Below, piece by piece: positions 20,689-44,364 of a stretch of 44,364 bases of DNA. The notes under the pieces are model-generated. The model was not told where the DNA came from, ran no database searches, and saw only the letters and a program-made list of their open reading frames with translations. Each line of letters starts with the position of its first letter. Position 1 is the stretch's first letter. The DNA comes from a virus (Duplodnaviria > Caudoviricetes): IMG/VR virus record IMGVR_UViG_3300042884_000704, positions 1-44,364 of that record, one strand, 5' to 3'. A program made the translations under genes and the position numbers.

Positions 20689-20694
20689 TCCATG

Positions 20695-20773: not shown

Positions 20774-20779
20774 AAATAA

Positions 20780-20851: not shown

Positions 20852-20853
20852 CT

Positions 20854-20966: not shown

Positions 20967-20969
20967 TTT

Positions 20970-21057: not shown

Positions 21058-21068
21058 TTGGTTTTTTG

Positions 21069-21095
21069 GTTGTCGCTGCCGGTTCGGTGGCGTTG
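21069..21095 (+). promoter_or_regulatory. GTT-N15-GTGGCGTTG motif, copy 8
   Basis: Upstream of the ERF gene. Confidence 0.65.
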
Positions 21096-21127
21096 TATAG
21101 GTGGCTCCAATACGAAAGGGAAAAGCC

Positions 21128-21955: not shown

Positions 21956-21956
21956 C

Positions 21957-22262: not shown

Positions 22263-23019
22263 CGGTCAACTGCTGGTCGTCGATGGGTTCTGCCGAGTGC
22301 TTGCGGCGCAGAATGTCGGCAAATCCAGGATCGAAGCGACGGTGACGAAAGGTACTTTTCAGGATGCTTTGCGTGCTGCTTGCGGTGCGAATGCTTCACA
22401 CGGCCACCGAAGGACTCAAGCAGATAAACGCAAGGCTGCGGGAATTGCAATCGCAGAGTTCCCGGATGAAACGTCTCGCGTCTTGGCTGCGATGGTCGGC
22501 GTGAGTCACACCTATATCGTAAGCCTGCGAGAGAAGGACAAGAAGCTCGACGCGATCATCGAGCAGGCGGCTGCTGGCGTGGTCCCGGACTTGAACTCCG
22601 AGCCAAAGCCGAAGCGTGAGAAACCACCAGCCAAGGTCGATGCGGTGATTCCCGTATCGGGTTGGAAGTGCTCTGACTGTGCTGGCGTGACTCAAGTGCT
22701 GACCGACGGCGGGTACGCTTGCTCGGCGTGCCTGTGTCCGGTCGGTGATTCGGTGGCCGAACCTGAGAGCAATCCAGCGGTCGAACCTGCGGACCCTGAA
22801 ACGGACCTGGGCGACGAAGACCCGTTTGCTGATACCAATGAAAAACCAGGGAAAGAGCCTGGACCCTTGGAAACGTTTACAGACCCGGACCCTGAAAAGC
22901 TCGGTGCTGTGCATACCGCCTGGGGTCGATTCATCAGGGCGTGCGAGCAGGCAAATTGCAGTCATGCGATCAAGGTTGAAATCGAAGCGATGACGAAGAA
23001 GCTCAAAGGACTGCAATGA
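22111..23019 (+). CDS. ParB/Srx-domain protein with HTH and Zn-finger
   Basis: FPPVQAF..DGQLLVVDGFCRVLA; NASHGHRRT..DKR; HTH TSRVLAAMVGVSHTYI; CSDC...CSAC. Confidence 0.75.
   Translation: MTSKKTIATSLLILDPRLQCRDSVPEALIKEYEDLWREKVTFPPVQAFEVDGQLLVVDGFCRVLAAQNVGKSRIEATVTKGTFQDALRAACGANASHGHRRTQADKRKAAGIAIAEFPDETSRVLAAMVGVSHTYIVSLREKDKKLDAIIEQAAAGVVPDLNSEPKPKREKPPAKVDAVIPVSGWKCSDCAGVTQVLTDGGYACSACLCPVGDSVAEPESNPAVEPADPETDLGDEDPFADTNEKPGKEPGPLETFTDPDPEKLGAVHTAWGRFIRACEQANCSHAIKVEIEAMTKKLKGLQ
22868..22881. repeat. palindrome copy 5
   Basis: TGGAAACGTTTACA inside the ParB-like gene. Confidence 0.75.
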
Positions 23020-29145: not shown

Positions 29146-29648
29146 CCAAACGCGCCGGAAAGAAAAAGTCACCGGGGCGCGGAAAGAAAACGACAGGCAT
29201 CAAGCCGGTGTCACAATCCGCACCGATAGCGACAGGCAACCCCCAACCAGATTCGTTCTTTTGGCCAGAACTGACCAAAGCGAATCAAGAGCTAGCAACC
29301 AAAGCTGGGAGAGGGGACCAACTAAAACGGCTCAACGATCTGCGGCTAGAACTGCGGTCGGTAAACGAGCGATGGCCAATACCACCTGAACTCCGAGAGC
29401 GGATGGTATTCGAATCGGCTCGGATCATGATGGACCCACAAGCAGGAGTCAAAGAGAAGCTGTGGGCCAATCGGCTTCTGTTGGCAATGGACCAAGTGAA
29501 CACCAAGCCGAAAGAGCTGCCGGTTCAAGTCCAGGCCGGAACCAACATCACGGTCAATCAAATCCTAGCAATGATCGACAGCGGAACAGACGATCTGGAT
29601 ATGAGGGACCGGAAGGTACTACCGGGGGCCGTGGATGACTACGCTTGA
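29142..29648 (+). CDS. putative terminase small subunit
   Basis: Immediately upstream of and overlapping TerL; basic N-terminus, helical core. Confidence 0.55.
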   Translation: MTKRAGKKKSPGRGKKTTGIKPVSQSAPIATGNPQPDSFFWPELTKANQELATKAGRGDQLKRLNDLRLELRSVNERWPIPPELRERMVFESARIMMDPQAGVKEKLWANRLLLAMDQVNTKPKELPVQVQAGTNITVNQILAMIDSGTDDLDMRDRKVLPGAVDDYA

Positions 29649-31095
29649 ACGAGGCGAATGGGTGTCGCCAGCCGACGTTCGCAAGGTGTACGAGGACGCT
29701 CAGGCAATGCGGTCCCCGTTGCTGATGGCCGAACACTTCTCGAACGACTGGAAGCGTGCTCGGCATCTAGCGGTCATCGACTTCGAGTTTCGCAATCTTT
29801 TGAACGATCCGAATTTAGACTGCTTGATCGTGAAGTGTCCGGTTCGGCATGGGAAGTCGCAGTATCTAGCGCGTTGGGCTCCGGCTTGGTATCTGCTGCG
29901 GAATCCATACTCGCGGGTGATGATCTGCACCAACACGGCAACGCTAGCGTCATCGCACTCGCGGTGGGTGCGGGACAAGGTGCATGAGCTTGCACCAATG
30001 ATGGGGCTCCCTGGGGTGGACCCAAAGCACTCGGCGGTTCGAGAGTGGCAACTGGAAAAGTATCACGGCGGCTGTCTGGCCGCGGGTGTTGGGACTTCGA
30101 TCGTTGGGTTCGGTGCGAACGTGCTGATTATCGACGACTACTTGAAGGATGCCAAAAGTGCGTACTCGCAGAAGATCCGTGACGACCAGTGGGATTGGTT
30201 CGTGTCGACTAGCTCGACCCGTCTTGAGCCTGGGGGCAAGGTGGTTCTGTTGTGTACTCAGTGGCATGAGGACGACCTGATCGGACGGATCGAAAAGCGG
30301 AAGGACGAGCTGGAAATACGGGTTCGTTCGATCACGCTGCAAGCTCTGCGGGAGGGCGACGAAGTAAAGGATCCTCTCGGGAGGGCCGAGGGCGAGGCGC
30401 TGTGGCCGGAACGCTGGCCGGAAGAAGTCATGCTGCGTCGCAAGCGGCAGGCTGGTCACTGGTGGTCCTCGATCTACCAGGGCAGTCCGAAGGGCTCGAG
30501 CATGAGTTCCTGGCCAGATGCGTACTTCCAAAATGTCTGGGCCGAGGACGACGAGTTCCCGGACCCTCGGGAGTGCTATCTGTCGGCTGCGTTCCTGGAC
30601 CCCTCGAAAGGCAAGAACTCGCGGAAGGGTGACTATCAAGCAATGGTCTGGATCGGATACCGAAACGGTCTGTTTTATGTCGACTCGAATATCGACCGGA
30701 TGCCAGTCCCGAAAATGGTTCGGACCTACGTCGAGTGGAATCGGGAGCGAAAAACCGCGTTCGTCGGGATCGAGGCTAACGCTTGGCAAGACCTGCTGGC
30801 CGACGACTATTGGGACGTTTGCCAAGAGATCGGGTACAACGCGGACCCACCAATCCTAGTCAATCAGACCGTGAATAAAGTGGTGCGCGTGGAGCGTCTT
30901 GGGAAGTGGTTCGAGAAGCGATTGATCCGGTTCAGGCGTTCGGCGTCCAACGAGATGCTGCTGGACCAACTGCGGACGTTTCCCTACGGGGCGTACGATG
31001 ACGGGCGGGACTGCTTGGAGGCTGCGATGGCTCTTTTGTGTCGCTCGGTGGACGCTCTGCATGGAATGCACGAAGTGACCGAAACTGAAATCTAG
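29635..31095 (+). CDS. terL: terminase large subunit
   Basis: CPVRHGKS Walker A; LIIDD Walker B; TQWHEDDLIG; YQG.P; RNase H-like FLDPS, GIEAN, DDGRD. Confidence 0.93.
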   Translation: MTTLERGEWVSPADVRKVYEDAQAMRSPLLMAEHFSNDWKRARHLAVIDFEFRNLLNDPNLDCLIVKCPVRHGKSQYLARWAPAWYLLRNPYSRVMICTNTATLASSHSRWVRDKVHELAPMMGLPGVDPKHSAVREWQLEKYHGGCLAAGVGTSIVGFGANVLIIDDYLKDAKSAYSQKIRDDQWDWFVSTSSTRLEPGGKVVLLCTQWHEDDLIGRIEKRKDELEIRVRSITLQALREGDEVKDPLGRAEGEALWPERWPEEVMLRRKRQAGHWWSSIYQGSPKGSSMSSWPDAYFQNVWAEDDEFPDPRECYLSAAFLDPSKGKNSRKGDYQAMVWIGYRNGLFYVDSNIDRMPVPKMVRTYVEWNRERKTAFVGIEANAWQDLLADDYWDVCQEIGYNADPPILVNQTVNKVVRVERLGKWFEKRLIRFRRSASNEMLLDQLRTFPYGAYDDGRDCLEAAMALLCRSVDALHGMHEVTETEI

Positions 31096-31121
31096 TTTGG
31101 TTTCTGGGCTTGGTGGCGTTG
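31095..31121 (+). promoter_or_regulatory. GTT-N15-GTGGCGTTG motif, copy 9
   Basis: Directly after terL, in front of the accessory island. Confidence 0.65.
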
Positions 31122-31164
31122 TATCTGCGAACGATTGTTTTTCCATTCATCGCAGAGGTGTTTC

Positions 31165-31743
31165 ATGGCGTGGGAGTTTGAAGATGAGGCCGGTCAGTTC
31201 CGATCGGTCGGCGGCAACGAGTTGCAGCGGTTGGTCAACGACGGGTTGATTACCAGGAGTACAAGGCTGACGGCGACAATCAGCGGAAAGACCGCGATGG
31301 CAGAAAACGTGATCGGACTCAAGTGGCCGGTCGAGGACGAGCAGGAGCAGCTAGAGCGATTGCTCGATGGGTTTCCGTTGTTTTCAGAAGAACCTCCACC
31401 GGCGAATGAGTGGCCAAAAGAGCCACCGCAAACCGCAACGCCTGTAAACGTTTCCAGGGACGCGCCAACCGGGATCTTCGACCTGGGGTTCCGGTCGGCA
31501 TTGACCCCGGCGTTGGTTTCGGCGCTTTGGGGTACATGGCTGACGGTCGGTGCTGGCGGGGTTGCTCTGATGGCGATCGGTATGGGGCTGCGGACTCGCT
31601 CAGGCGGTTCGGTCCCTCAGATGGTCGCTACGGTTGCGGCTTACGCTGTGGCGTATCTGCTGGCCTCGGTCGTGGTGCGGATCGTGTTGGAATGCGTTGT
31701 GGTGTTGTTTCGGATCGCGGATTATCTCAAGAGGATGAAGTAA
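31165..31743 (+). CDS. GYF_2-like plus DUF4282-like membrane protein
   Basis: ELQRLVNDGLITRSTRL N-terminus; IFDLGFRSALTP...VRIVLECVVVLFRIA with 2 TM helices. Confidence 0.65.
   Translation: MAWEFEDEAGQFRSVGGNELQRLVNDGLITRSTRLTATISGKTAMAENVIGLKWPVEDEQEQLERLLDGFPLFSEEPPPANEWPKEPPQTATPVNVSRDAPTGIFDLGFRSALTPALVSALWGTWLTVGAGGVALMAIGMGLRTRSGGSVPQMVATVAAYAVAYLLASVVVRIVLECVVVLFRIADYLKRMK
31443..31456. repeat. palindrome copy 6
   Basis: TGTAAACGTTTCCA, intragenic linker. Confidence 0.75.
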
Positions 31744-31745
31744 CG

Positions 31746-31985
31746 ATGAGCGATGAGCGAAAGGCCCTGAATGCACAGAGGGCCGAGGACGTGAAACGAA
31801 TCAGGGAAGCGTACCTGGAAGCCGAACGTGCGGTTGCCAAGGTCGGTACGTTGCTTCGGACTACAGTGGCAGGCGAGTATATGTGGGCGACCCGTCACCG
31901 GACTGCGATAAGCGGAATCAAGGCGACGCTGAATATCATGCGGAAGGACGTTCCAGACTATCGGGGAAAAGAGCAGGATTCATGA
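31746..31985 (+). CDS. hypothetical protein
   Basis: Coupled small ORF. Confidence 0.5.
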   Translation: MSDERKALNAQRAEDVKRIREAYLEAERAVAKVGTLLRTTVAGEYMWATRHRTAISGIKATLNIMRKDVPDYRGKEQDS

Positions 31986-32233
31986 GCGACGCAATCCCGG
32001 TCGAGTTCGTCGGTGGTCCGTTCGACGGAAAGCAGTTGTGGGTTCCCTCTTTGGAGGGGGATCTGAAAGTGCAGGAGTTGGACCTGCACGCCGAATCGAA
32101 TACGCAGTCCGGCAAGGTGGCCTATATCGAGCATTCGTATCGGCTGCGCAAGGTCGAGGGTATCCTAGTAAGGCTACCGAACGGCTGGCACGCAATGGAC
32201 CACCAGACACCGAACCAGGAGCCAAGGGGATGA
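31982..32233 (+). CDS. hypothetical phage protein
   Basis: FVGGPFDG motif common in small phage proteins; ATGA coupling. Confidence 0.6.
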   Translation: MSDAIPVEFVGGPFDGKQLWVPSLEGDLKVQELDLHAESNTQSGKVAYIEHSYRLRKVEGILVRLPNGWHAMDHQTPNQEPRG

Positions 32234-32487
32234 TCGACAAGAAAATGATCCGAAGCAGGATCGAGGAACTAGAGAGCGTTGCTGGCTGCGACCTGTCGAA
32301 CGCGGACCTGGATCGGCTCGAAGGCTGGTTCTGGGAGGGCTACAAAACGGCGATGCCAGCGTGGGCGTTCCACCAGATCGGCTACGACACGGCCGAGAAG
32401 CGTTCCTACAAGCTAGGGCAGATGACGCGCCGGCTCGAACTCCAACGGACCCTGTGTATCGGGCGTTCCAGGGTGCAAAAAAAGTAG
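32230..32487 (+). CDS. hypothetical protein
   Basis: ATGA coupling. Confidence 0.5.
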   Translation: MIDKKMIRSRIEELESVAGCDLSNADLDRLEGWFWEGYKTAMPAWAFHQIGYDTAEKRSYKLGQMTRRLELQRTLCIGRSRVQKK

Positions 32488-32560
32488 GGTTGTTTTTTTC
32501 TGGCGTTTTTTTCTGGTTTGCGTTTTCCCTGGTTTTTCGTTGGTCCGTCGCGTCGGTCGC

Positions 32561-32574
32561 TGTAAACGTTTACA
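32561..32574. repeat. palindrome copy 7
   Basis: Perfect TGTAAACGTTTACA next to a putative promoter. Confidence 0.8.
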
Positions 32575-32579
32575 AGATT

Positions 32580-32634
32580 CTGGAAAAACCCGCGCCCTGT
32601 TTTTCGGCCAAATGAGCCCTAGCTACTATGGGGG
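32580..32634 (+). promoter_or_regulatory. putative promoter element homologous to 13973-14024
   Basis: TACTAT at 32624-32629; shared upstream blocks; T-tracts upstream. Confidence 0.55.
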
Positions 32635-32679
32635 AGCAAGTCGCTCCCTTGAACGGAAACCTGAAAGGATCAGACGAAA

Positions 32680-32958
32680 ATGGCCAAGGCATCAAAAAGC
32701 GGATTGTTCGAAGTTTGGGGCGGTTTTTTAATCGAAGGCGATTGCTGCACACCAACTCGGATTCACAAATTCCTGGTTAAAACGTTCCCTACTTCGGAAG
32801 CAATCGAGGTTGCGACGCAAAGCAATGCTTTTCACGGATTGGATTACGTTGAAATCCGGTTCCCAAAGAACTACTTGGACCGGATGGCCAATCTGGACAA
32901 GCGCAAGCAAGATCGCCGTAATCGGGAAGCGTTGCTCGATCCATCGGTTCCATTCTAA
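32680..32958 (+). CDS. hypothetical protein
   Basis: AAGGA RBS. Confidence 0.55.
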   Translation: MAKASKSGLFEVWGGFLIEGDCCTPTRIHKFLVKTFPTSEAIEVATQSNAFHGLDYVEIRFPKNYLDRMANLDKRKQDRRNREALLDPSVPF

Positions 32959-33014
32959 CCTTTCAATCAGCCGACAATGCTGAAACCCTAACGCTTTTTT
33001 GGAGACAATGACAG

Positions 33015-33299
33015 ATGGAAAAACTACTCAAGAGGCTACAGTCGATCGAGGAACTGGACTGCGTTCTGCAGAACTGGTGTTCTGACGACGACAAGCGGCC
33101 AGAGGACTACTCGATCGATTTGCTGCTGGATCTGGCGGTCGAGCGGCGAGGGGAGTTCTACGAGGACTGCCACACGCTGTGCGAAGCGTTGCAGGGCGAC
33201 CGTGGGCCGGAGGAAAAGCGGTACGCGAAATCGCAACTGGCCAAGATCAATCGATGGATCAAAGCAGCAAACAAAGCGGTGAACGACGCGAAGCGATGA
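33015..33299 (+). CDS. hypothetical protein
   Basis: GGAG RBS. Confidence 0.55.
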   Translation: MEKLLKRLQSIEELDCVLQNWCSDDDKRPEDYSIDLLLDLAVERRGEFYEDCHTLCEALQGDRGPEEKRYAKSQLAKINRWIKAANKAVNDAKR

Positions 33300-33339
33300 T
33301 CGACGACTGCCTCCTGCCGGGATGGGCTCCGGTTTTTTG

Positions 33340-33366
33340 GTTTTGTTTTGTCGCTCGGTGGCGTTG
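33340..33366 (+). promoter_or_regulatory. GTT-N15-GTGGCGTTG motif, copy 10
   Basis: Intergenic. Confidence 0.65.
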
Positions 33367-33386
33367 TACTGGTGGAGGATTTTTTC

Positions 33387-33638
33387 ATGGCAAAATTCGA
33401 TTGGGAGCAAGTCTCGCGTGGCGTTCACCGGGCTTGCGAATGGACGTTTGAAGTAGTGGCCGGACGGTTCTTTCTGAGCGGTCCAAGCTGGTACGTTCCA
33501 AGCCAAGTCGGTGGCTTTGCATCCTTCGCTGACGTCGAAGAGGAAATCACCGAAGAGTGTCGAGAGCGCCGCGCGGTGCTCCGTGAGTTGATGGGTCAAG
33601 AGTACCAAGCATGGTGCAGAGGATGGGAAAGGGTATGA
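33387..33638 (+). CDS. hypothetical protein
   Basis: GGAGG RBS. Confidence 0.55.
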   Translation: MAKFDWEQVSRGVHRACEWTFEVVAGRFFLSGPSWYVPSQVGGFASFADVEEEITEECRERRAVLRELMGQEYQAWCRGWERV

Positions 33639-34804
33639 CGACGGAAGTGAAACCAGTGGTCGAGGGTCTGCGGTCTGTGATCGCTGATGATGTGATTGCT
33701 GCGGCTGCGGAAAAGTTTGGGCCGTTGTCGGCTGACACGAAGGAAGGCTATCGGGACGTCAAAGAGGCGATCGCGTGGTGTCGAAACCAGCGTGGGGCGG
33801 TCGAAGCGAAGCGGAAGAATCTGAACGAGGAAGCGTTGAAGTGGCAACGAACCGTGAACGCCGAAGCGAAGCGGATCACCTCGAGCCTCGAAGCGATCGA
33901 GGAACCGTTGAAGTCCAAGAAGCAGGCCGTTGACGACAAGGTGGAGCAAGAGCGTGCAGAACTCGCAGCAAAGCACCAAGCCTGGATCGACGGTCGAATC
34001 TCGGAGAGCGTCAAGGTGACCGGAAAGCCGATCTCGACTGCCGAGGCTGAGTCCTGGACCGACGAGCAGTTTGCAGAGTATATCGAAGCCGGACGGAAAG
34101 CGAAGGCAGAAGCAGACGCAAAAGCCAAAGCAGAGGCCGCTACGCTCGCTCAGGAAGAGGCTGACCGGAAAGCCAAGATCAAGGACGAGCAAGATCAGAT
34201 CGCTGCGGACAAGGCGGCACTGGCACGCCAGAAGACCGAACAGGACGAAAGGGAAAGAGAGATCGAAGCGAAGCTGGCCAAGATCTTGAGGGCTGAGGAA
34301 ATGGCTGCGAGGATTCAACCTGCTACCGTGATCGGCGAGAATGACCTAGCCGGGAAGCTGCTGAGGTCGCACGAGGATCGGTCCGGAGCCGAACAGGTCT
34401 TGAAGGCTCAGGTCGAAGCGATGGCAAACTTCCCTGAATTCCCATGCCCTGGGTTTCCAGAGGCTGAGGCCGCCGAGGACTTGAAGGGCGAATCTCGGGA
34501 TGCGTTGGTCGGTGCCTTCGATTCGGTCGATCCGGTCTGTGCGGTCAATCGCATGGCTGTACCAATCGAAAGCGCTCAGGAGATCATGGACGCTGCCGAG
34601 CACGAAGCAGCACGAAACTTGATCGCTCCAAACCACGGCGAAATCATGCTCTTGCTGAGGACGATGCAAGTCGGAGCAAAACGCTTGGAGGAGTTTTTTG
34701 ACGATGCCGAAGGAGTTCTTTGGGAGCGTTACGTCATGGCTGAGGATATCAGGATTGCTGTCGATGACCTGCTAGAAGAAATGGACAACTACGCACCAAA
34801 ATAA
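33635..34804 (+). CDS. DUF1351-like coiled-coil protein
   Basis: KEGYRDVKEAIA.CR..R.AVEAKRK.L.........VNAEAKRIT..LEAIEEPL. Confidence 0.6.
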   Translation: MTTEVKPVVEGLRSVIADDVIAAAAEKFGPLSADTKEGYRDVKEAIAWCRNQRGAVEAKRKNLNEEALKWQRTVNAEAKRITSSLEAIEEPLKSKKQAVDDKVEQERAELAAKHQAWIDGRISESVKVTGKPISTAEAESWTDEQFAEYIEAGRKAKAEADAKAKAEAATLAQEEADRKAKIKDEQDQIAADKAALARQKTEQDEREREIEAKLAKILRAEEMAARIQPATVIGENDLAGKLLRSHEDRSGAEQVLKAQVEAMANFPEFPCPGFPEAEAAEDLKGESRDALVGAFDSVDPVCAVNRMAVPIESAQEIMDAAEHEAARNLIAPNHGEIMLLLRTMQVGAKRLEEFFDDAEGVLWERYVMAEDIRIAVDDLLEEMDNYAPK

Positions 34805-34926
34805 TGGACGATGATTTTTTCAATCTAGTCGACAGGATTGCCGATCGTTGCATCTATGCTGCGGTCGGTTGTCTTGTCGGCTTGCATGCGCTGGGCTTGT
34901 ATCTCGTATGGGATATTGCAAGACAG

Positions 34927-34953
34927 CTTTTCTTTAAGTGATCCGTGGCGTTA
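34927..34953 (+). promoter_or_regulatory. CTT-N15-GTGGCGTTA motif, copy 11
   Basis: Upstream of the 35005 gene. Confidence 0.55.
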
Positions 34954-35004
34954 GATACACGGATGATTCGATAACCCCCAAGACCCTGAAAGGGCAAACT
35001 GCAA

Positions 35005-36048
35005 ATGTCTGATGGAAAAAAGCAAGGTGGCGAAAACTGGCGTGACGCAACTGGTGACGATGTTGCGGAAGTCATAAAGACCGGAAAGCCGATTCCGGCT
35101 AGGTTCAAGGATGACGACAACGAAGACTGGCTAGATTGCTCGCTTGCGGGGTGGAAATTAGTCAAGCATCTTCATGGCTCAAGGTGGGTCGATGTAGACG
35201 GCGTGCTGTGGAAGCAATGCCAAGTCTACCGCGAGCCAGCACCGACGCGCAGTCCCAAGGACGGCTGCCGAATGCTTGAGGACAACGAAGAGCCGATTCC
35301 TGGGGACTTCATCAACTGGGGTGCAGGATGGAACGAACTGACGGCAGCAATGTTCCCTTTGGCGTTAATTCCTTCTTGGTTCTGCCGACCGATTAAAGAG
35401 CCTGTCGAGAGCGGTCCTCCGTCGTCGATCGGATTAACCTACTGCCCCTGGACTGACACGGTTTCTAAGATTGTCCGGACCGATGCAAACGGAAAGGTGG
35501 TCGAGTCGATATCTGCACCCTGGAATCCAGTTGTTGGCGATAAAGTTCGGTTCGTGAATCCGAATCACTCCAGGACCGGAACAATCGGGCGAATAAAATC
35601 AGTGACGAAAAACGAGTATTTGTTCCAAACCGACGACTCAAGATTTGGAAGATGGTGCGTTCTTTCCGAGCTTGAAAAGTACGAGCTTCCTGTACCGAAA
35701 GGCTTTCGGCTGCTCGGTGATGAACCACGGCTGGCGTCTGATGGCTACTGGTCGCTGAGCTGCAAGGACTGGCTTGTGATCGGTGATCGAGTCGAGGAGG
35801 CGAACCGTGACAAGTGGCCAGCGATCCGATTCGTGGTCGATGAGCCTAGACCGGTCAAGCATCAGAGCCAGATTCAAGTCAAGCATCCAGGCCAATCCAA
35901 TAGTCCTGGTTTGATCATGCAGATCAGGCTACCGGTCCCTGCGAGCGTACTAGGCAAGCTGGGAGATATGCTTGAGAAGCACTACCCAGGATCGACAATG
36001 CGTCAGGTCGGTGGCTATCTGGTGTTCGAGGAACCCTCGGATGCGTGA
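35005..36048 (+). CDS. multi-module hypothetical protein
   Basis: 347 aa mosaic of short modules (GCRMLEDNE and GFRLLGDE repeats; KOW-like VGDKVRF). Confidence 0.6.
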   Translation: MSDGKKQGGENWRDATGDDVAEVIKTGKPIPARFKDDDNEDWLDCSLAGWKLVKHLHGSRWVDVDGVLWKQCQVYREPAPTRSPKDGCRMLEDNEEPIPGDFINWGAGWNELTAAMFPLALIPSWFCRPIKEPVESGPPSSIGLTYCPWTDTVSKIVRTDANGKVVESISAPWNPVVGDKVRFVNPNHSRTGTIGRIKSVTKNEYLFQTDDSRFGRWCVLSELEKYELPVPKGFRLLGDEPRLASDGYWSLSCKDWLVIGDRVEEANRDKWPAIRFVVDEPRPVKHQSQIQVKHPGQSNSPGLIMQIRLPVPASVLGKLGDMLEKHYPGSTMRQVGGYLVFEEPSDA

Positions 36049-36472
36049 CCTGCTCAAGCTGCTTTGCGTCCTGCTGATCCTCGGCGGCTGCGTGTGGCCG
36101 TGGGCCTGCTGGTTCGCGCAGTCGGACAAGCCACTCCGAGAGGTCGAGGAATCGATCGACTGGAATCCCTCAGAGGGCAAGCGGTCCTCGGGGTGGCGTC
36201 AGGTGCGTGATCGGTTCGTGCAAAAAAATCCAGTTTGTGTTGCGTGCGGTTCATCGGTGGCGTTGAATGTTCATCACGTTCGCCCGGTCAGTAAGTTCCC
36301 GAAGCTGGAACTGGTCGAGTCGAATCTGATAACCCTGTGCCGGGATCATCACTTGACGCTCGGGCATGACCCGGACGGTCCGTGGTCGCCAAAGAAGGCA
36401 AGCTGGTCCGAGTGGAATCCTCGGGTGCGTGAACATGCGGCCGAGGTCGCTAGGGGCAGGAAAATAAAGTAG
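36041..36472 (+). CDS. HNH endonuclease with N-terminal hydrophobic segment
   Basis: RSSGWRQVR...CVACG...VHHVRP...NLITLCRDHH. Confidence 0.8.
   Translation: MRDLLKLLCVLLILGGCVWPWACWFAQSDKPLREVEESIDWNPSEGKRSSGWRQVRDRFVQKNPVCVACGSSVALNVHHVRPVSKFPKLELVESNLITLCRDHHLTLGHDPDGPWSPKKASWSEWNPRVREHAAEVARGRKIK
36239..36265 (+). promoter_or_regulatory. GTT-N15-GTGGCGTTG motif, copy 12 (intragenic)
   Basis: Exact spacing is kept although it lies inside the HNH gene. Confidence 0.4.
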
Positions 36473-36499
36473 CGTTCTGTTTTTTGAAGGGCTAGGAAA

Positions 36500-36619
36500 A
36501 TGCTGGTTTTTGTTTTTTGGATGGCTGTATCGTTTGTCCTCGGTGCTGCGTTCGGCTGCGGTGCAACGTTGTGGGGCATGGCTGGTTCGGAATCGTTCGT
36601 TGATCGGGATGACTCATGA
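36500..36619 (+). CDS. small TM peptide
   Basis: MLVFVFWMAVSFVLGAAFGCGATLWG...; stop overlaps the next ATG. Confidence 0.4.
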   Translation: MLVFVFWMAVSFVLGAAFGCGATLWGMAGSESFVDRDDS

Positions 36620-36921
36620 GCAAGCTAGAAAAGGTGGCGATCGACCTGCTGCGTGCTGAGGCAAAATCAGATCGGGCTCGCGCTGAGGCTGAGGCATCGG
36701 CGGTCGAGTTGATCCAGGTCGCTTCCGAGGGGATCTCGCTGCGGGAGTTGGCACGACGAACCGGGCTGAGTGTTTCGTACCTGTCGGCGGTTCAGACCGG
36801 CAGGCAGAAAATAAGTAGCAATGCGTTCGTGCGCATCGCGGGTATGAAGTTCGCCAAGGTCAAGCTCAACGCTTATGCTCTTGACGAAGAACGAAGGCTG
36901 GATGCGGGAGGAAAGCAATAG
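36616..36921 (+). CDS. XRE-family HTH protein
   Basis: GISLRELARRTGLSVSYLSAVQTGRQKIS. Confidence 0.8.
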   Translation: MSKLEKVAIDLLRAEAKSDRARAEAEASAVELIQVASEGISLRELARRTGLSVSYLSAVQTGRQKISSNAFVRIAGMKFAKVKLNAYALDEERRLDAGGKQ

Positions 36922-36923
36922 CG

Positions 36924-37358
36924 ATGATTGATTTACGAATGGTCGCCGATGACCGAGGCAACTTGCAGTTGCAAATGAGGTCTCGAAACGACACTATCAG
37001 CCGCCACGGTAGGTTTTATCAGGGCGACTGGAATCCATGGCAATCAGTACCGATCGTCCACGACCCTACTCAGTTGGTCGACCGGGTTGAAATCTTCGAT
37101 GCAAGATCATCGGGAGCAAAGCCGGACGTTGGCCTGACCGGAAAGCAGCTTGCTGAGGTTCTGGAATACATGGCAGCATCTCGCAAGTACCACCAGGATC
37201 AGGGGATGAATCAACTCGCAGGAGACATTCAATCGAGGTCTTTTGCCAGCGGCGTAGCGGCTGGAATCTTCGAGTGCATTTCAAAGATCCAGAACGTAAT
37301 CGGCCAGCAAGCCGACGAATCGACCGATGACGAATTTGATCCGGACCTACCTTACTAG
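36924..37358 (+). CDS. hypothetical protein
   Basis: GGAGG upstream; acidic C-terminal DDEFDPDLPY. Confidence 0.55.
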   Translation: MIDLRMVADDRGNLQLQMRSRNDTISRHGRFYQGDWNPWQSVPIVHDPTQLVDRVEIFDARSSGAKPDVGLTGKQLAEVLEYMAASRKYHQDQGMNQLAGDIQSRSFASGVAAGIFECISKIQNVIGQQADESTDDEFDPDLPY

Positions 37359-37365
37359 GAAAAGG

Positions 37366-37947
37366 CTACCCGACAAGCCGCATAACATCGGCCGAATCGA
37401 GCGTGACAAAATCCTGCTGTGTCCATGCCATGATACCGACGGCAGCACTTACGAGGCTTGCTGGCGTGTCGGACGAGTCGATTTCCAGTAGGGGCAGAAT
37501 CAGTTTGTCGGTCCTGATGCCGTAAAGGTATTTCGCAGCGTCGCGGGTCATGCAGACCCCCTCAAGATTCGCGGCGTTGCGTTTTCTTGCGCACTCTTGC
37601 GCCCATTCGACCGTCGTAAAGTTCGCACCGTTGACAAGCTCGATCCGAAGTTCGTACCGATTCAGGATGCTTTTCGGTGTCGGCCGACGCTCGAAGAAGT
37701 ACGACGATTCGGCAAGCGTGATCATCCCTGGCGGTGGCTGCTTGCGATTGATCGGCGGGATTGTGAGCAGGGCGATTCGGTGTCGGAGCTTGCGGTCGTA
37801 CTGCCAGCGGAGCCGACCGGAGAGGTGTGCGGTGACGGTGTTCCTGGCGAGGCGAAGCCGTAGGGCTATTTCCGTCTTGGGAGTTCCGGCGTGGGAAAGC
37901 CAGAAGATTTGGTACACTGTCTGAGGGTCGAGTCGCATGGTGAGCAA
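37366..37947 (-). CDS. HTH DNA-binding protein
   Basis: GTPKTEIALRLRLARNTVTAHL HTH; fills a gap with no credible + strand gene. Confidence 0.6.
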   Translation of the reverse strand: MLTMRLDPQTVYQIFWLSHAGTPKTEIALRLRLARNTVTAHLSGRLRWQYDRKLRHRIALLTIPPINRKQPPPGMITLAESSYFFERRPTPKSILNRYELRIELVNGANFTTVEWAQECARKRNAANLEGVCMTRDAAKYLYGIRTDKLILPLLEIDSSDTPASLVSAAVGIMAWTQQDFVTLDSADVMRLVG

Positions 37948-37977
37948 TTATGACCTATAGTCAGGCCGGAGGGTACT

Positions 37978-40900
37978 ATGGATCTGATCGTCGAAAAGAT
38001 GGCCGAGAGTAAAAGTCTAGTTGAATCCTGGGGCGAGGTCATCGATGTGACCGAGTTCATGACGGATTCGAGCGGGTTTTTCAATACGAATGGACTCGGT
38101 GCGTTCACCCAGATTTACGACCGGGCCGACGGTCGATACCGTCCAGTCTATACCAACGAGTCCGACCTGAAACTGATCCGGGCTATGTCCTGGCTGCTGG
38201 TCGAGAAGGTACCGATGGCTCAAGCCTGGGTGAACCGGCTGCTGGATTACACGATCGGGACCGGGTTCGACTGGACGATCAAGGCCGACGATAAACGGCT
38301 TGAGAAGGCGATCCAGTTGTACGTTCGGGAATCGCTCGACGTATCGAACTGGTCGACGGAACTCGAGCGTGAGTCCTACATGCGGGAGGTCGCTGACGGC
38401 GAGTTCATCGGTGAGCATATCTACGAAGACGGTCAGTGTATGGTCGTTTCTCGGGAGGCTGACGAGCTTACCGAACCGGCAATCAAAGGCGAACTGGAAG
38501 AATGGCTCGGGCTGGATTTCGTTCCGTCCTGGACGTTCGGCGTGCTGACGAAGGAATCCCTTCCGGAGCGACCAATCGGGTATCACTTCGTCCGAAACTC
38601 GGCTGGAACCGATTGGGATTACGTTCCTGCGGATCGCGTCTGCATGTGGAAGCGGAACGTACGATCGCGGGGCAAGCGTGGGTTCTCGGACTTCTACAAG
38701 CCGCACCTGTATCTGCTCCGGGCCGACCGGGTACTGACCAACACCGCAGAAGGGGCCGCTACTCAGGCTGCGATTGCGTATATCGTCGAGCACCGGGACG
38801 GAACGCAAAGGCAAGCCGATAACATCGTCAAGCGGTTCGCACCTCCGACCGGCAAGGTGGACCCGTTGACCGGGCTCGCACAACGACGGCGGCGAATGCT
38901 TCCGGGTACTCGGCTCGACGTTCCCGAGGGGCAGGCGTACAAGGCAGGTCTGCTCGGCTCGAACAACTCAGGGATCTACATCGAGGTCATGGAATCGGCT
39001 TTGAGGCTCGCTGGTTCGGTCCATGCGTTCGTCGAAGGGATGCTGACCGGTTCCTATGCGAACAACAACTTCGCGTCGGCTCTGGTCGCTGAGGGGCCGT
39101 TCATGCAGGGCCGGCTCGCAGAGCAGTCGCAACGCAAAGAGCGAATGCGGGATATGATCCTGAAAATAATCAAGCTCGGAGCGTCGAAGGGCCGGTTTCG
39201 ATCGGCCGGTTTCGATTCCTGGGATGCGGTCCGGGACCGGGTCACGGTCGAGGTCATTCCGTCGCGGATTATTCCGGTCGATCCACTCAAGACCGCACAA
39301 GCCCTGGCGATCCAAAAGCAGAACGGTTGGGTGTCGGACAAAACCTGCATCAACGAACTCGGACGGGATATCGATACCGAGACGGCAAACGGGCTCAAGG
39401 TCGGCGGCGCTGAGAAGCAAGCCGGGGCCGATGGTCAACCTGGGGCTGCTGGTCCTGCTGCTGGCCAGGACGGGAATCCTGTAAACGTTTCCAAGAATCC
39501 GGAGCCAGAATCCTCACTTTGGCTGGGATTATCGCGTCAACAGTGGCAACGGAACCGCAAGGCCGTGAGCGATGTGCTGACGGATTTCGCAGACGGAAAG
39601 ACCCGGCGTTCGGTCGCGGTCGCTCTGCTGCGTGCTATCGGGATGCCGGAGCAAGGGATCCAAACGATCCTTCGGGATGCGTCAGACGGGCAGATCGATT
39701 CGCTACCACCAGAGCAGATGGAATCTGTCCAGGAGGCCGAGAGAAAAACACTCAACCGTCCCTTTCGTACGTCGAATGGTCCTAAGAAATTTGCGGTCTA
39801 CGTCAAGAACGAAAAAGGGAACGTGATCCGGCTCGGCTTCGGTGATCCGAAGATGAAAATCAAGCGGGACAATCCAGGAAGCCGGCGCGGGTTTCGGGCT
39901 CGGCATAACTGCCAAGACCCAGGGCCGAAGTACAAGGCTCGATACTGGTCCTGTCGGTTCTGGTCGAAGCCAAGCGTCTCGAAACTTCTGCGCGAGTCGG
40001 TCGAGGAATTCATTCCATGGGACGGCAAGACGTTCGTTCGGGAGTCGTGGCTACTGAAAACAAATCCGCGATTGCAGGAGGCGTTCTGTGCAACCGGCAA
40101 GAAGGGTGGCGTAAAGAACGACTGCCCACCGAAACGGACACCAAAGGCACCGGCAAAACCAAAATTCGTATCAAGCGACCGGGAACGGAATCTTGAAAAC
40201 GACAAGGTCATCAACGGCATGTTGGCAATGTTCAACGATGCAGATATGGCAGGGCTGCAATCCGTCGAGCATCCAAGTCCAAAGGTGATGGAATACTCAA
40301 AGGCCCTTCAAAGGGCGTTGCACGCGTCGGGCGTGAAGGGTGGAAATCCGATCGACCTGTTCGGCTCTAGCTCTGCAATGCACCAACGCGGCGGCGTGTG
40401 GACCGATGAGCGTCGTGAGCTGCACGCTGAAATCTACGACAAGCTGCTGACCGGAGCGGAACCTGTGAGCAATCCTGTGTTCGTTCTGCTTGGCGGTGGA
40501 TCGGCATCCGGAAAGAGCACCCTGACGGCTGGTGGTTTGGCTGAAATCCCTGGATCGATCGTTCGAGTGGATTCGGACCAAATAAAAGCAATGCTGCCGG
40601 AATACGCGGAAGCAAGCGGCAAGGATGCTAGGGCTGCGGCGTTCGTGCATGACGAGTCTGCTTACATGGCCAAGGAGCTTGCTGCAATCGCGTCTGGCCG
40701 TGGCTACAACACAATGCTGGACGGAACTGGCAACGGATCCGAAGGTGGCTTGGCTGGCAAAGTTGGGATCGCTAGGGATCGCGGGATGAAGGTGGTCGCA
40801 GTCTATGCAACGACCGACCTGGACACCGCATTGAAACGAAACGCTGAACGTGCAAAAACCGACGGTCGGATGGTCCCCAATTCGTTCCTGCGATACTCTC

Positions 40901-41073
40901 ATTCGCAGGTCAGCGCGTTGTTCCCTCGGTTCGTTGCAAACGGGAGCTTCGATGAGGCTCACCTGTACGACACGACCGGGGATGCCAAGAAGATTGCAAC
41001 GTATCAAAACGGATCGCTCGAGGTTCACGATCCAAAGGCGTACCGGAAGTTTTTAGATAAGGCAGGTCGCTAA
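37978..41073 (+). CDS. portal protein fused to C-terminal cargo domains including a Zeta/PezT-like P-loop kinase
   Basis: aa 1-475 portal-like (REVADGEFI, PIGYHF, VPADRV, RGFSD, NFASALVAE); basic KKFAVYVK..FGD..FRARHNC..ARYWSC domain; GGGSASGKS, VDSDQIK, HDES, LDGT, GRMVP. Confidence 0.8.
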   Translation: MDLIVEKMAESKSLVESWGEVIDVTEFMTDSSGFFNTNGLGAFTQIYDRADGRYRPVYTNESDLKLIRAMSWLLVEKVPMAQAWVNRLLDYTIGTGFDWTIKADDKRLEKAIQLYVRESLDVSNWSTELERESYMREVADGEFIGEHIYEDGQCMVVSREADELTEPAIKGELEEWLGLDFVPSWTFGVLTKESLPERPIGYHFVRNSAGTDWDYVPADRVCMWKRNVRSRGKRGFSDFYKPHLYLLRADRVLTNTAEGAATQAAIAYIVEHRDGTQRQADNIVKRFAPPTGKVDPLTGLAQRRRRMLPGTRLDVPEGQAYKAGLLGSNNSGIYIEVMESALRLAGSVHAFVEGMLTGSYANNNFASALVAEGPFMQGRLAEQSQRKERMRDMILKIIKLGASKGRFRSAGFDSWDAVRDRVTVEVIPSRIIPVDPLKTAQALAIQKQNGWVSDKTCINELGRDIDTETANGLKVGGAEKQAGADGQPGAAGPAAGQDGNPVNVSKNPEPESSLWLGLSRQQWQRNRKAVSDVLTDFADGKTRRSVAVALLRAIGMPEQGIQTILRDASDGQIDSLPPEQMESVQEAERKTLNRPFRTSNGPKKFAVYVKNEKGNVIRLGFGDPKMKIKRDNPGSRRGFRARHNCQDPGPKYKARYWSCRFWSKPSVSKLLRESVEEFIPWDGKTFVRESWLLKTNPRLQEAFCATGKKGGVKNDCPPKRTPKAPAKPKFVSSDRERNLENDKVINGMLAMFNDADMAGLQSVEHPSPKVMEYSKALQRALHASGVKGGNPIDLFGSSSAMHQRGGVWTDERRELHAEIYDKLLTGAEPVSNPVFVLLGGGSASGKSTLTAGGLAEIPGSIVRVDSDQIKAMLPEYAEASGKDARAAAFVHDESAYMAKELAAIASGRGYNTMLDGTGNGSEGGLAGKVGIARDRGMKVVAVYATTDLDTALKRNAERAKTDGRMVPNSFLRYSHSQVSALFPRFVANGSFDEAHLYDTTGDAKKIATYQNGSLEVHDPKAYRKFLDKAGR
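39480..39493. repeat. palindrome copy 8
   Basis: TGTAAACGTTTCCA in the portal linker. Confidence 0.75.
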
Positions 41074-43817
41074 TGCTTACCGTCGAAAATGCAGCGTCGA
41101 TCATGGCTGCTGTCCAACTTGGTCAACAGTTGCCAATCAACACGCCAGAAGCGCTTGCGATGGCTGAACAACTCCGAGAAGAAATCGCGGCGTTTCCTCC
41201 CGGCGTGGAAGTCGAAATACCGGGCGAGTGGAGCATCGAGGAAAAGCCTGAACTGATGCAGGAAATGCGTTCTGCAAAAAGGCAACGTCTGCGCGAAGCA
41301 TTGATCGCTTCGAGCGGGTATCGACTGATCGAGTCGGTTATGGACTCAATCATGCCGGGTGGCGCTGACCACTGGAAAGGACAGCCAAGAGCAAAGGACG
41401 GAAAGTGGATCGACAGCGGTGTGAATTACAGCAAATGGCCATCACAAAACAGTGCTGCCAACTCGCACAAAAAGAAAATCAAGCTGCTGGAAAAGCTGGT
41501 TGCAAATGGCGAGTACGAAGAGTTCTTGAAGTTGCAGCCTATTATCAAGTCCAAGTCCCCAAACAGCTATCAGAAAGGACTAGCGAAAGCGTGGGAGAAC
41601 CTGCATGAAATCGTTAAGCAATCGATGCAAGCCCCACCAAAAGGTGCGGTCAAAGTCCCTGGTACAATCGCTCTGGCTGGCTGGTCTAAGATTGGAGGAT
41701 CGCTCGGGACCGAGAAGGGTGGGACGTACATCGGTCCAGACGGTGCGAAATACTACGTCAAGACACCAGACAATCCGGCTCGCGCGCACAATGAAGTCCT
41801 GGCATTTAAGCTCTATGAATTGGCCGGTGGGAGCGTTGTTGAGGCTCACTTAGTTCAAGTCGAGGGAAAGACTGGCATCGCGACAAAGTGGATGAACGAT
41901 GCCGAATCTCTTAAGTGGACGGCTGGGGATAAAGTCGCGGCATCCTCGGACTTTGCGTTGCACGCGTGGCTGAACAATTGGGACGCAATCGGGGCTGGCT
42001 CAGAAAATCCAATGGACAACATTAAGCTGTCCGAGGGAAATCTCAAGCTGGTCGATGCTGGTGGATCGCTGGACTATTCCGGCATGGGCGGATCCGGCAA
42101 GAAAATGTTCACAAACGAAGCAAACGAGTGGGACACGCTGCGCGACCCAAAAGTTAACAAAACAATGGCTCAAGTTTTCGGAGGAATGACCGACAAGCAG
42201 CTAGTTGATTCCGTTTCAAAACTTCACAACGTTGGCTACAACGACATTCACGAAATGGTCTGGGAGTATCACCCAGGAACCGGCGATGAAAAAAACAAAA
42301 TGGTTGACACCCTGGTCGACAGGAGAAACTCAATCATTGCTAAAGGCTTGGCCATCCAATCAAAACTCGACAAGGCTGCAAAAGCTGCAGGGGAGTCCTG
42401 GGTCGATTCAATGATTTCGCAAGCGGTCGGATCAAAGGCTGACGAGGCACCTGTAATAATTTCAAGTGTTGCTTCCAAGGGCGAACCAATACCACCACCG
42501 CCAGCGTCGTTTGTCGCGTCAACCAAAACCAAAACGCTGCCACCGCCACCAATCATAACCAGTGCAACAAATCAGTCTGTCCAAGCAAAAATCAACGCTC
42601 TGTACAACGCTGCAAAGTCTGGAAACATTGCAAGCCTGAACGCGATTTCTACCAACCCGGCTGCAATTCAAACCTACTCGAAAAAAGCTCACGCCTACAA
42701 ACAGCAACTCTTAGCAGCAATGCAAGATGGTGCAACCGCGAACCCTGAGCACGTTGTTCCAGTGTCGCAACCTACGGCCGATTTTGGGGCAGCTAAGGCA
42801 TCGGAGAAGGCTGCTGCTGCTTCGGTCGCTCAAGCCGATGAAATGCTCAAGTCCGACGGCAAGAAGGTTCCAAAGGGTCTGTTCTCGCAGCCTCCGACGT
42901 TCCAAGGCTCAAAGACCGAAGTGAACAATGCTTCGGCAGAGAAGATTTTGCAGTTGGCTCGGTCCAGCGACAAGGAAGGTATCCAAGCGGTCGACGTTCC
43001 AGACGGGACAAAAATCGGGGAGTTCAAAAAGAAAATCCTCTCCGAAATTGACCAGATACCTGAGAAAAAAGCAGCGTACCAAAAACAAAAAGCTGAGGCG
43101 CAAGCGGCTCAGGCAAAAGCAAAAGCCGAGCAAGAAAAGGCGGCTGCTGAGTTTAAGCAGAAGTACGGCGATGATTTCTTTTCAGCAGCAAAGGCGCTGA
43201 CCAAATCCAACACGGTTACCAAGTCGGTCGGTTGGTGGAACATCACACACGAAAACATTCCTGTCCCTCATGTGCCTGCAAATGTGCAAGCAGGACCAGA
43301 GCGACACGTACTGATGGCTAAAGGTTACGAGGCTTACGAAAAAGCACCCACGGCTGTGCAAAATGCAATCAAAAAATTTACTGGTTCGTATTCTGGAACC
43401 ATCAATAACGATATGGTTTCCACAAAAGGTGATCCTAAATCGGCCCTTGCAAAAAACGCAGCTAAAGCGTTGGAAAAATACAGCGTCGATTTGCCGGAAG
43501 GAATGTTCCTGTCCAGGAAGTATTCCTATAGCACTGGTCCTGGGAAGCACTTAGTCCCTGGTCAAGTGATTTTTTCCGATACCATTCACTCGACTTCGGT
43601 TGACCCTGATGTTTGGTCTGGAAGCACACACATGCACATCACCATCGGAAAAGGAGTTAAAGGACTTCCGGCTGAGCACTTTTCTAGCCACAAGTCCGAA
43701 AAAGAGGTTGTGATGGGTGCAGGCCAAAGGTACGTCGTGACCAAATACGAACCGCCAGATTCGAGCGGAATCGATCGGATTTACGTTTTGGCGCTGCCCA
43801 CTGGCGGCGTTGACTAG
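41073..43817 (+). CDS. polyvalent head-associated protein: PI3/4K-HipA-like kinase plus VIP2/Alt-like ADP-ribosyltransferase
   Basis: QPRAKDGKW motif; kinase YYVK..NEVLA..LY, WLNNWD, DN, LVDAGGSL; ART FTG...IN, LSRK, STS, EKE. Confidence 0.75.
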   Translation: MLTVENAASIMAAVQLGQQLPINTPEALAMAEQLREEIAAFPPGVEVEIPGEWSIEEKPELMQEMRSAKRQRLREALIASSGYRLIESVMDSIMPGGADHWKGQPRAKDGKWIDSGVNYSKWPSQNSAANSHKKKIKLLEKLVANGEYEEFLKLQPIIKSKSPNSYQKGLAKAWENLHEIVKQSMQAPPKGAVKVPGTIALAGWSKIGGSLGTEKGGTYIGPDGAKYYVKTPDNPARAHNEVLAFKLYELAGGSVVEAHLVQVEGKTGIATKWMNDAESLKWTAGDKVAASSDFALHAWLNNWDAIGAGSENPMDNIKLSEGNLKLVDAGGSLDYSGMGGSGKKMFTNEANEWDTLRDPKVNKTMAQVFGGMTDKQLVDSVSKLHNVGYNDIHEMVWEYHPGTGDEKNKMVDTLVDRRNSIIAKGLAIQSKLDKAAKAAGESWVDSMISQAVGSKADEAPVIISSVASKGEPIPPPPASFVASTKTKTLPPPPIITSATNQSVQAKINALYNAAKSGNIASLNAISTNPAAIQTYSKKAHAYKQQLLAAMQDGATANPEHVVPVSQPTADFGAAKASEKAAAASVAQADEMLKSDGKKVPKGLFSQPPTFQGSKTEVNNASAEKILQLARSSDKEGIQAVDVPDGTKIGEFKKKILSEIDQIPEKKAAYQKQKAEAQAAQAKAKAEQEKAAAEFKQKYGDDFFSAAKALTKSNTVTKSVGWWNITHENIPVPHVPANVQAGPERHVLMAKGYEAYEKAPTAVQNAIKKFTGSYSGTINNDMVSTKGDPKSALAKNAAKALEKYSVDLPEGMFLSRKYSYSTGPGKHLVPGQVIFSDTIHSTSVDPDVWSGSTHMHITIGKGVKGLPAEHFSSHKSEKEVVMGAGQRYVVTKYEPPDSSGIDRIYVLALPTGGVD

Positions 43818-43848
43818 GTAGGATGATTCGATCGGAGGAACTGGAGAA

Positions 43849-44364
43849 ATGGCAAAAGAAATCAAAGAAAACCTTGGGAACTACGATACTGTGGTCCAAA
43901 TCCTGCGGACGGCAGTTGATGAGTTTTTCACCTACCTTGGGACCACAAAGGACGATCCAGAGGCTCGGGCTGCGTGGATGACCAAGATGTGCTCGACCCT
44001 CGGGGACCTGTTCCTCGACGGGTCAAAGCAGTACGAGGCGGTCGAGGTCTGGAACGCTCCGGGCAAGATCGACGCTTACCTAGCCGATCTGTATCCGTTT
44101 CCAACCACGGATCCCAAAGAACGGATGCGTTGGTTTTTCGTTGTGTTCTTCAACGAAATAAACGAGCTTCATGCGTTCGCGTCAACTCCTGGCGTGTTGG
44201 ATGAACAATGGAAGCCAAGCGGGGCAAGGCTGTTCCAAAGGTTCGCCATGATGCTGCTGGGTATCCCATTGGACGAATTTGCAGATGCAACCGAGGAATC
44301 CTCTACGGTCGAAGTGCAGGAAAGCGTCAAGCTCTCCGGCCGTCAAAGAGCAATGCTCGAGAAC
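43849..44364 (+). CDS. 3'-truncated protein with acidic helical N-terminal domain
   Basis: GGAG RBS, ATG 43849, open to the window end (MAKEIKENLGNYDTVVQIL...EVQESVKLSGRQRAMLEN); absent from the supplied ORF track. Confidence 0.7.
   Translation, partial: MAKEIKENLGNYDTVVQILRTAVDEFFTYLGTTKDDPEARAAWMTKMCSTLGDLFLDGSKQYEAVEVWNAPGKIDAYLADLYPFPTTDPKERMRWFFVVFFNEINELHAFASTPGVLDEQWKPSGARLFQRFAMMLLGIPLDEFADATEESSTVEVQESVKLSGRQRAMLEN

Follow-up and report, generated by a model that had tools for sequence, protein, structure and literature searches.

A portal-anchored array of phage head enzymes with candidate partner domains fused to the next open reading frame

The window, by which we mean the whole stretch of DNA analysed here, is an entire IMG/VR virus record (IMGVR_UViG_3300042884_000704; Duplodnaviria, Caudoviricetes) of 44,364 bases, linear and 74% complete according to CheckV. 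Tail genes and the gene for the terminase large subunit (29635-31095) lie on it, and its right end takes in the beginning of a head module. Our subject is a set of three consecutive genes on the plus strand of that module: gene 1 (37978-41073; 1031 amino acids (aa)), a portal protein that ends in a zeta-type kinase; gene 2 (41073-43817; 914 aa), in which a small acidic domain precedes a second kinase and an ADP-ribosyltransferase (ART); and gene 3, in which an acidic domain is followed by a short tail otherwise found on portals. Related loci are referred to by L numbers. About 7 kb of non-structural open reading frames (ORFs), among them HNH, HTH, DUF4282 and coiled-coil proteins, lie between the terminase large subunit and the portal (31096-37977).

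Gene 1 opens with a lambda-family portal domain (37978..39399; PF05136, E-value (E) 8e-10, spanning aa 62-368; phrog_21, E 3e-24). The conserved portal comprises 474 aa, is 73-100% identical across 24 viral loci, and is extended by 557 aa. Part of the extension is constant (39508..39972): a helical domain with a small basic module, matching phrog_7595 (E 3e-9), a family of unknown function, and present in the close relatives compared, the cargo-poor L020 and L025 among them. It is followed by a predicted protease site and module tag, LQE|AFCATGKKGG..C (40072..40125), with Glu at -3, and by a C-terminal zeta/PezT-type P-loop kinase (40372..41070). The Zeta_toxin family PF06414 matches aa 829-1001 with E 5e-21, and PezT and Zeta were the only PDB matches. 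Alignment to 1gvn and 2p5t showed the PF06414 fold, the catalytic Asp and the Walker A motif (GGGSASGKS at aa 839). AvrRxo1 is an NAD kinase, and since the zeta profile also reaches AvrRxo1 (E 2e-4), UDP-GlcNAc, the substrate of Zeta/PezT kinases, is no more than a candidate substrate for the gene 1 kinase. The zeta domain is the end of the portal ORF, and no match to the Epsilon/PezA antitoxin family was found in gene 1, 2 or 3 with Pfam or PHROGs.

Genes 1 and 2 are coupled by a TAATG stop-start overlap (41071..41075), and the corresponding junctions in L005, L024 and L031 show the same overlap or a spacing of 1-2 nucleotides (nt). The N-terminal domain of gene 2 (41073..41246; 58 aa, isoelectric point (pI) 4.1) is the likely partner, or immunity protein, of the zeta kinase and represents an undescribed family, as searches of Pfam and PHROGs were blank. 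Between this domain and the cargo lie two Glu motifs at which cleavage is predicted, LRE|A and LIE|S, and a tag of the form HWxxQPR (41256..41408). The kinase that follows (41658..42380) is of the CtkA/PI3K/HipA type; its AlphaFold model (predicted local distance difference test score (pLDDT) 83) matched CtkA in Foldseek searches (E 3e-6, template-modelling (TM) score 0.62), as well as VPS34, LepB and HipA. The conserved Lys, Glu and Asp motifs are present in its sequence, and it has 90 relatives in viral contigs. The C-terminal ART (43221..43814; PF03496, E 8e-6) is of the R-STS-ExE type, with all three elements present (LSRKY, HSTS and SEKE), and its homologs in cultured phages carry ART annotations. 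Two unrelated effector domains are therefore found in one polypeptide encoded among virion genes. The possibility that the N-terminal domain is part of the kinase was rejected, because kinase homologs without zeta lack it. The middle of gene 2 (42525-43080) contains Pro-led helical segments that by eye resemble those of Dolphis gp117 and L127-L129; a phmmer search for an internal repeat gave nothing significant. Separately, the ART core (43273-43704) is replaced in L005, L035 and run X12, with flanks and gene 3 nearly identical, which is, judged from sequence, an allele exchange within the enzyme.

Gene 3 runs past the window and was completed from L033 and L034, which are 99.97-100% identical to the window end and continue beyond it. 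It encodes 177 aa, ending ...VQESVKLSGRQRAMLENWKDYP, with its stop 5 residues beyond the window end, and is followed by genes for MuF, protease, scaffold and major capsid protein. Its five-helix acidic domain (43849..44265; 139 aa, pI 4.8, model pLDDT 94) is the likely partner of the ART. Searches of Pfam, PHROGs and the ESM Atlas were blank, defining a second undescribed family; the best PDB match of the model (Z 7.3, to TetR C-terminal domains) is helical-bundle noise, and the matches in BFVD were unnamed phage proteins only (TM 0.75-0.83). The two putative partners do not form a single family, as they share no similarity (hhalign probability 0.5%). Downstream of the acidic domain are a VQE|S motif and the start of the portal C-terminal tail (SGRQ...W.DYP; 44314..44364), as continued in L033 and L034.

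An earlier note, made from the window sequence, had described the locus as a portal extended by about 550 aa into a Zeta/PezT-like kinase, a TAATG-coupled gene with an acidic start of about 60 aa, a HipA/PI3K-like kinase and an R-STS-ExE ART, and a third gene combining an acidic helical domain with further cargo. Domain searches and models bore out this three-gene anatomy in all but one respect: the acidic helical domain of gene 3 stands, whereas a role as cargo carrier is ruled out, since L033 and L034 show only the portal tail after it. The note had also named an assembly artefact as a danger. This is excluded by L002, which is 100% identical to the window across 8860 bp and reproduces the fusions, and by contigs of a second lake run that match positions 37900-40603 and 40774-43816 with 0 differences.

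Sequencing runs holding at least half of the window's sampled words were lake-water metagenomes only (11 rows). The only relatives of the portal in cellular genomes are three contigs of Planctomycetaceae metagenome-assembled genomes, at 32% identity, for which reason a planctomycete host is a lead only; the zeta profile had no match among the 401 genomes searched from this putative host phylum. The comparisons below draw on 24 portal relatives and 75 MuF matches, the last ~20 of which are remote and unrelated in layout. As the loci are related, counts over them are not independent.

We asked whether each N-terminal domain follows the enzyme at the end of the preceding gene. In all 10 clade records in which zeta is the last module (window, L002, L004, L005, L022, L024, L031, L033, L099 and L106; about six distinct sequences), the next ORF opens with the gene 2 N-terminal domain. 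This includes L022, where zeta lies on the second gene, off the portal, and the domain is still next. The survey of kinase loci gave the converse result. Seventy-three of 80 loci were scored, the other seven being contigs already counted, and the domain was found only at L143 (the L002 contig) and at 0/72 kinase loci without the clade's zeta upstream. At L141, L142, L146 and L147 the kinase is fused directly to the same type of portal, and neither zeta nor the N-terminal domain is present. Six homologs of the domain stand alone (53-61 aa) and one is fused to another short cargo. A stand-alone homolog in cyanophage P-SS2 (ORF033; E 2.5e-5 over six-frame ORFs) lies three ORFs after a MuF::zeta gene.

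The gene 3 domain behaves in the same manner with respect to the ART. It has 26 homologs, some without the tail and some stand-alone, and is found behind this ART in every clade record that has it, as well as in L127-L129 and the cultured phages Dolphis, ECML-606-1 and ST4. Of 11 loci with a close ART, L163 ends at the stop codon; in the other 10, whose sequence continues, the domain was next in every case (10/10), and in the same junction survey it was never seen without this ART. A partnership with the kinase was rejected: in L128 the domain follows the ART where no kinase was found, and it is missing behind kinases that lack this ART. Sequence divergence points the same way, as L024 and L037 are identical in MuF (100%) and differ in the ART (39% identical) and its partner (54%), and identities correlate better between ART and partner (rho 0.77) than between partner and MuF (0.41). 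The rule of one enzyme and one partner also applies to HExxH, TopIB-like and restriction-fold nuclease modules; 5/5 partners measured were acidic (pI 4.1-4.8), and several of the enzymes are basic. Because each N-terminal domain occurs only after its own enzyme clade and also occurs alone, these domains likely behave as cognate immunity proteins of the upstream enzymes. In L011 (12818-13824) and L029, the portal array terminates in a TopIB-like module (PF01028), and the ORF behind it, of 64 aa, very acidic and bearing the tail, might encode a DNA-mimic inhibitor; a similar acidic ORF was seen by eye at L144:724-2033.

The W..YP tail of gene 3 closes the portal itself in cargo-poor relatives. 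In all 37 distinct upstream regions that passed the MuF filter, the tail ends the ORF before MuF, and this ORF is a partner in 17 cases, a portal or portal fragment in 19, and frameshifted in 1 (L044). Partner-borne tails (13 distinct versions) differ pairwise by 456 synonymous and 163 non-synonymous codon changes, and from this synonymous excess the tail seems to stay functional once detached from the portal. Its retention merely as a ribosome-binding site for MuF is unlikely, given how often its codons change synonymously and that tails lying clear of the MuF start keep the motif as well. From its position, we would guess that the tail binds MuF. A short hydrophobic ORF is located between the tail-bearing ORF and MuF in L005 (7571-7689) and L011 (13824-13942).

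In portal and MuF relatives, the corresponding arrays range from ~720 to more than 1500 aa. Behind a constant part they carry variable modules, including ART-PolyVal, VIP2-type ART, GNAT, TopIB-like and zeta domains, with HExxH domains also recognized by eye. Three alternative tags, DGDGDG, CxTGxxGG..C and HWxxQPR, mark the starts of modules, and Glu occupies position -3 in 33/33 distinct DGDGDG and CxTG contexts of the clade, against a background of 7.6%. Two MuF genes, L141:8702-10450 and L144:2516-4909, have long insertions that look intein-like by eye.

The T4 prohead protease cuts at I/L-x-E, and HK97-type proteases prefer Lys. In these phages the head protease, read from L034 beyond the window end, is Peptidase_S77-like by the ESM Atlas (0.97; 26/30 hits S77), with Pfam and PDB sequence searches blank, and 9/9 aligned protease domains end in LFE. 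The Glu and Lys motifs and the tests for them were chosen after the sequences had been seen. By these tests the Glu motif is over-represented in a capsid protein (p 0.03), a protease-scaffold (p 0.02) and a pair of scaffolds (p 0.002 for either); three further proteins showed no enrichment. L127-L129 encode another type of protease (phrog_80); their CPTG and HLPG tags are preceded by Lys, and Lys motifs are enriched in 3/4 of their head proteins tested. In L144, L145, L148 and L211, 10/10 such tags are likewise preceded by Lys. The Glu at -3 of the tags is what one would expect of a protease of the T4-gp21 type (S77), the putative type of these phages, and cleavage at the Glu sites is in our view likely. 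The related S80 proteases are reported to cleave after AXE or SXE (PMC5694885).

Tagged cargo was also observed after the LFES end of the prohead protease gene of a near-identical relative (L034:2547-4151; also L043:5491-6918; DUF6900, E 3e-17), so that the arrangement seen in the portal array applies to a second head protein. Three zeta-bearing phage proteins (P0055, P0057 and P0060) repeat other tags, HPRD..G.F and GG.GSGNFGH, up to five times with other preceding residues, which suggests further combinations of tag and protease.

A comparison of L014 with L015 indicates how such chains may arise. L014 equals L015 plus a 1.39 kb cassette consisting of a toxin, a stop and a partner, flanked by 62 nt of duplicated tag DNA (L015 7547-7608), and the array, which L015 carries on its portal, is in L014 attached to the newly arrived partner. 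A cassette that enters at a tag would thus join its partner to whatever lay downstream, which explains partner::cargo (gene 2) and partner::tail (gene 3) alike. A longer chain is present on MuF in L129 (MuF::nuclease / partner::HExxH / partner::kinase::ART / stand-alone partner), and its first partner stands alone after portal::nuclease in L104 and L105. In L145 (2288-7932), a portal with a nuclease-like end precedes a MuF that carries kinase::ART cargo and is extended N-terminally by an acidic stretch; this chain through MuF itself was seen by eye, has no profile score and was left uncounted.

Taken together, we give a probability of roughly 60% to the reading that the locus is one portal-anchored polymorphic array, split into three ORFs by two enzyme-stop-partner cassettes, in which the partners likely inhibit their enzymes and the modules are predicted to be cut apart by the head protease. 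That the partners are inhibitors which bind their enzymes is in itself probable, as the arrangement matches MuF toxin-immunity pairs, for which this has been proven with Bxa-Bsi. The partner would protect the producing cell, with translational coupling giving ~1:1 synthesis. The bond between partner and enzyme would also act as a tether that holds the products of gene 2 (kinase::ART) and of gene 3 (tail) on the portal, and cargo without a covalent link could in this way still enter the prohead. Within the head, the S77-like protease would cut after Glu, leaving tags on the enzymes and none on the partners. The enzymes would stay bound to their partners until ejection, when unfolding in the portal-tail channel would probably release them; in the newly infected cell they would then counter host defence or rival phages. 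We propose this second role of the toxin-partner bond, as a tether, tentatively and at somewhat less than even odds. More tentative still is the generalization that toxin-immunity bonds form a phage packaging chain, in which portal or MuF arrays accept cassettes at tags, partners silence their enzyme and hook on the next polypeptide, and the protease frees the tagged enzymes. The last piece hooked would be the portal's own MuF-adjacent tail, untagged partners would stay behind when tagged enzymes are ejected, and the tags would be transferable signals for ejection or targeting, each preceded by the residue that suits the protease of its phage.

Several observations weigh against the array with inhibitory partners and protease-cut modules. 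The remote zetas of SJC03 and L195/L196 lack a gene 2-type partner, and the gene 3 domain was found after 0/8 remote ARTs, with the remote homolog in L137 also lacking a partner. No partner was found for ART-PolyVal, VIP2-type ART, GNAT or the kinase itself, and it follows that fold alone cannot tell toxicity. Enzyme and partner do not always diverge together: the window (like L034) and L035 have 100% identical gene 3 domains and ARTs that are 75% identical, and the window and L005 have 100% identical gene 2 domains and zetas that are 78% identical. In L044 a frameshift separates partner and tail, and the partners of L141 and L142 have no W..YP tail; both lie outside the 37-region count, as L141 failed the MuF filter and L142 has no MuF alongside. 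Four of the 11 motif tests on proteases, scaffolds and capsid proteins were not significant, and these tests were devised post hoc on loci that are not independent. Cargo genes that stand alone without a chain exist (Dolphis gp117 and gp119), showing that a tether is not required. Finally, the virion evidence for P-SS2 ORF033, described below, comes from few peptides.

The main rival, which we consider less likely, is that the partners are true immunity proteins and their fusion to the next gene is a scar of insertion. In that case the cargo of gene 2 would be loaded by means of the tag or Glu motif that it carries, and packaging would not depend on the bond between toxin and partner. Insertion of the kind seen between L015 and L014 is enough to yield a partner fusion, and the same partners occur elsewhere as stand-alone ORFs. 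Cargo genes with a short leader and a tag also occur alone (Dolphis gp119, ECML gp45), and T4 capsid-targeting sequences are reported to suffice for packaging foreign proteins (PMC5694885). Against a passive scar stand the amino-acid constraint on the portal tail in partner ORFs and its retention in every region counted, which suggest a function near the portal, and the presence of a stand-alone partner in P-SS2 virions. In the published proteomic data on that phage (PMC2784084), ORF030 (17648-22147), which is the MuF::zeta polyprotein, gave 96.5 peptides and ORF033 (22567-22767), the homolog of the gene 2 N-terminal domain, gave 2.5, with 1.5 and 1 for ORFs 031 and 032. As far as these values go, the partner is likely packaged and not left behind, and co-packaging of enzyme and partner favours release at ejection. 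ORF030 (L130:7786-12285) is named major capsid protein in the same paper.

The P-SS2 data also bear on the proposal of the earlier note that each N-terminal domain neutralizes the enzyme of the preceding gene and is cut off during head maturation, so that active enzymes are packaged. Its expectation that these domains co-vary with the upstream enzyme, and not with the part downstream, was confirmed by the junction surveys; the packaging of active enzymes does not follow, because a partner cut from gene 2 would remain on the gene 1 zeta, bound to its toxin on the preceding polypeptide. A version in which the partners are cut off and cleared, leaving already active enzymes in the virion, could draw on the Glu motifs between partner and cargo, on the reduction of core proteins by T4-type proteases to fragments that leave the head, as reported in PMC5694885, and on the Glu-rich composition of the partners, which might be degraded. 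It is improbable, given that cleavage of a linker does not break a non-covalent bond, that the strict Glu motif finds no site inside either partner domain, and that ORF033 was detected in mature particles (PMC2784084). Least probable of all, in our judgement, is that the N-terminal domains are chaperones, adaptors or activators of enzymes that are harmless to the producing cell. An inhibitor and a chaperone cannot be told apart by gene order, enzyme cores differ by 22-25% between loci whose partners are 100% identical, and other enzymes travel without partners. Against this, a small, acidic, coupled ORF after a terminal enzyme is the layout described for MuF toxin-immunity pairs (PMC5576092), this layout is reported as proven by experiment for Bxa-Bsi (PMC11699363), and the partners are acidic where several of the enzymes are basic.

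For toxins borne on MuF or portal proteins, the role, the loading and the activation of the enzymes are open questions that this family of loci makes testable. It offers short tags and predicted sites of cleavage, and natural variants exist in which either cassette is present or missing. Its two partner families, both undescribed, have homologs in cultured phages, namely Pseudomonas phage Dolphis, coliphage ECML-606-1 and cyanophage P-SS2. Should the tags or the chain direct loading and ejection, head cargo could be read from phage genomes by a general rule, and proteins might be loaded into phage heads by the same means.

Head-borne effectors, zeta domains on MuF and enzymes fused to portals are already in print (PMC5512222, PMC9503650, PMC3482391). 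In T4 (Alt, internal proteins and gp21) and in the ejection proteins of SPN3US and phiKZ, as reported in PMC5694885, a head-packaged ART, a prohead protease of the S77/S80 type and cleavage after Glu are the features to which the ART, the S77-like protease and the predicted Glu sites described here would correspond. T4 cargo is targeted by a removable N-terminal sequence and the T4 portal is not processed (PMC5694885), whereas here the cargo is on the portal C-terminus and the tag would remain on the mature module. With Epsilon-Zeta and PezAT the locus shares a zeta-type P-loop kinase in which Walker A and the following Asp are aligned; over the C-terminal half the resemblance to Zeta declines. 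The partner here lies downstream, has 58 aa and matched no known family, and the kinase is borne on a portal. Phage polyvalent proteins likewise combine many unrelated enzymes in one head-associated polypeptide, and their ART-PolyVal domain also occurs in these arrays. The surveys of these proteins note zeta on MuF, and PBECR, 2H, Nudix and ART domains on portal or other head proteins, and in the portions that bear on our subject they ascribe processing mainly to zincin domains and describe no fusion of partners to the next gene, protease-matched tags or relayed tail (PMC5512222, PMC9503650). In the literature that we covered, too, neither these tags nor a relayed tail nor the fusion of a partner to the following cargo is described, and supplementary listings may hold such architectures.

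The closest relatives are the MuF polymorphic toxins (PMC5576092; Bxa-Bsi, PMC11699363; Apk2), for which a C-terminal enzyme on a head protein and a small coupled ORF are likewise reported. MuF-type carriers in P-SS2, L128 and L129 hold the same zeta, ART and partner families as this locus, and the gene order of L034 (portal, cargo, MuF, protease, scaffold, capsid) places the array in the head and packaging module. As in MuF toxins, a variable C-terminal enzyme is followed directly by a cognate small ORF, extended here by cargo or tail. The carrier is the portal, however, while MuF is short and free of cargo (220 aa in L034, with no extension), and the partner ORFs continue in frame into more cargo or into the portal tail, with several modules chained. 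Since its carrier is a portal, the locus is not a member of the MuF toxins, though alike in working; on its sequence, it is a portal-borne variant of the MuF/portal phage effectors with two undescribed partner families.

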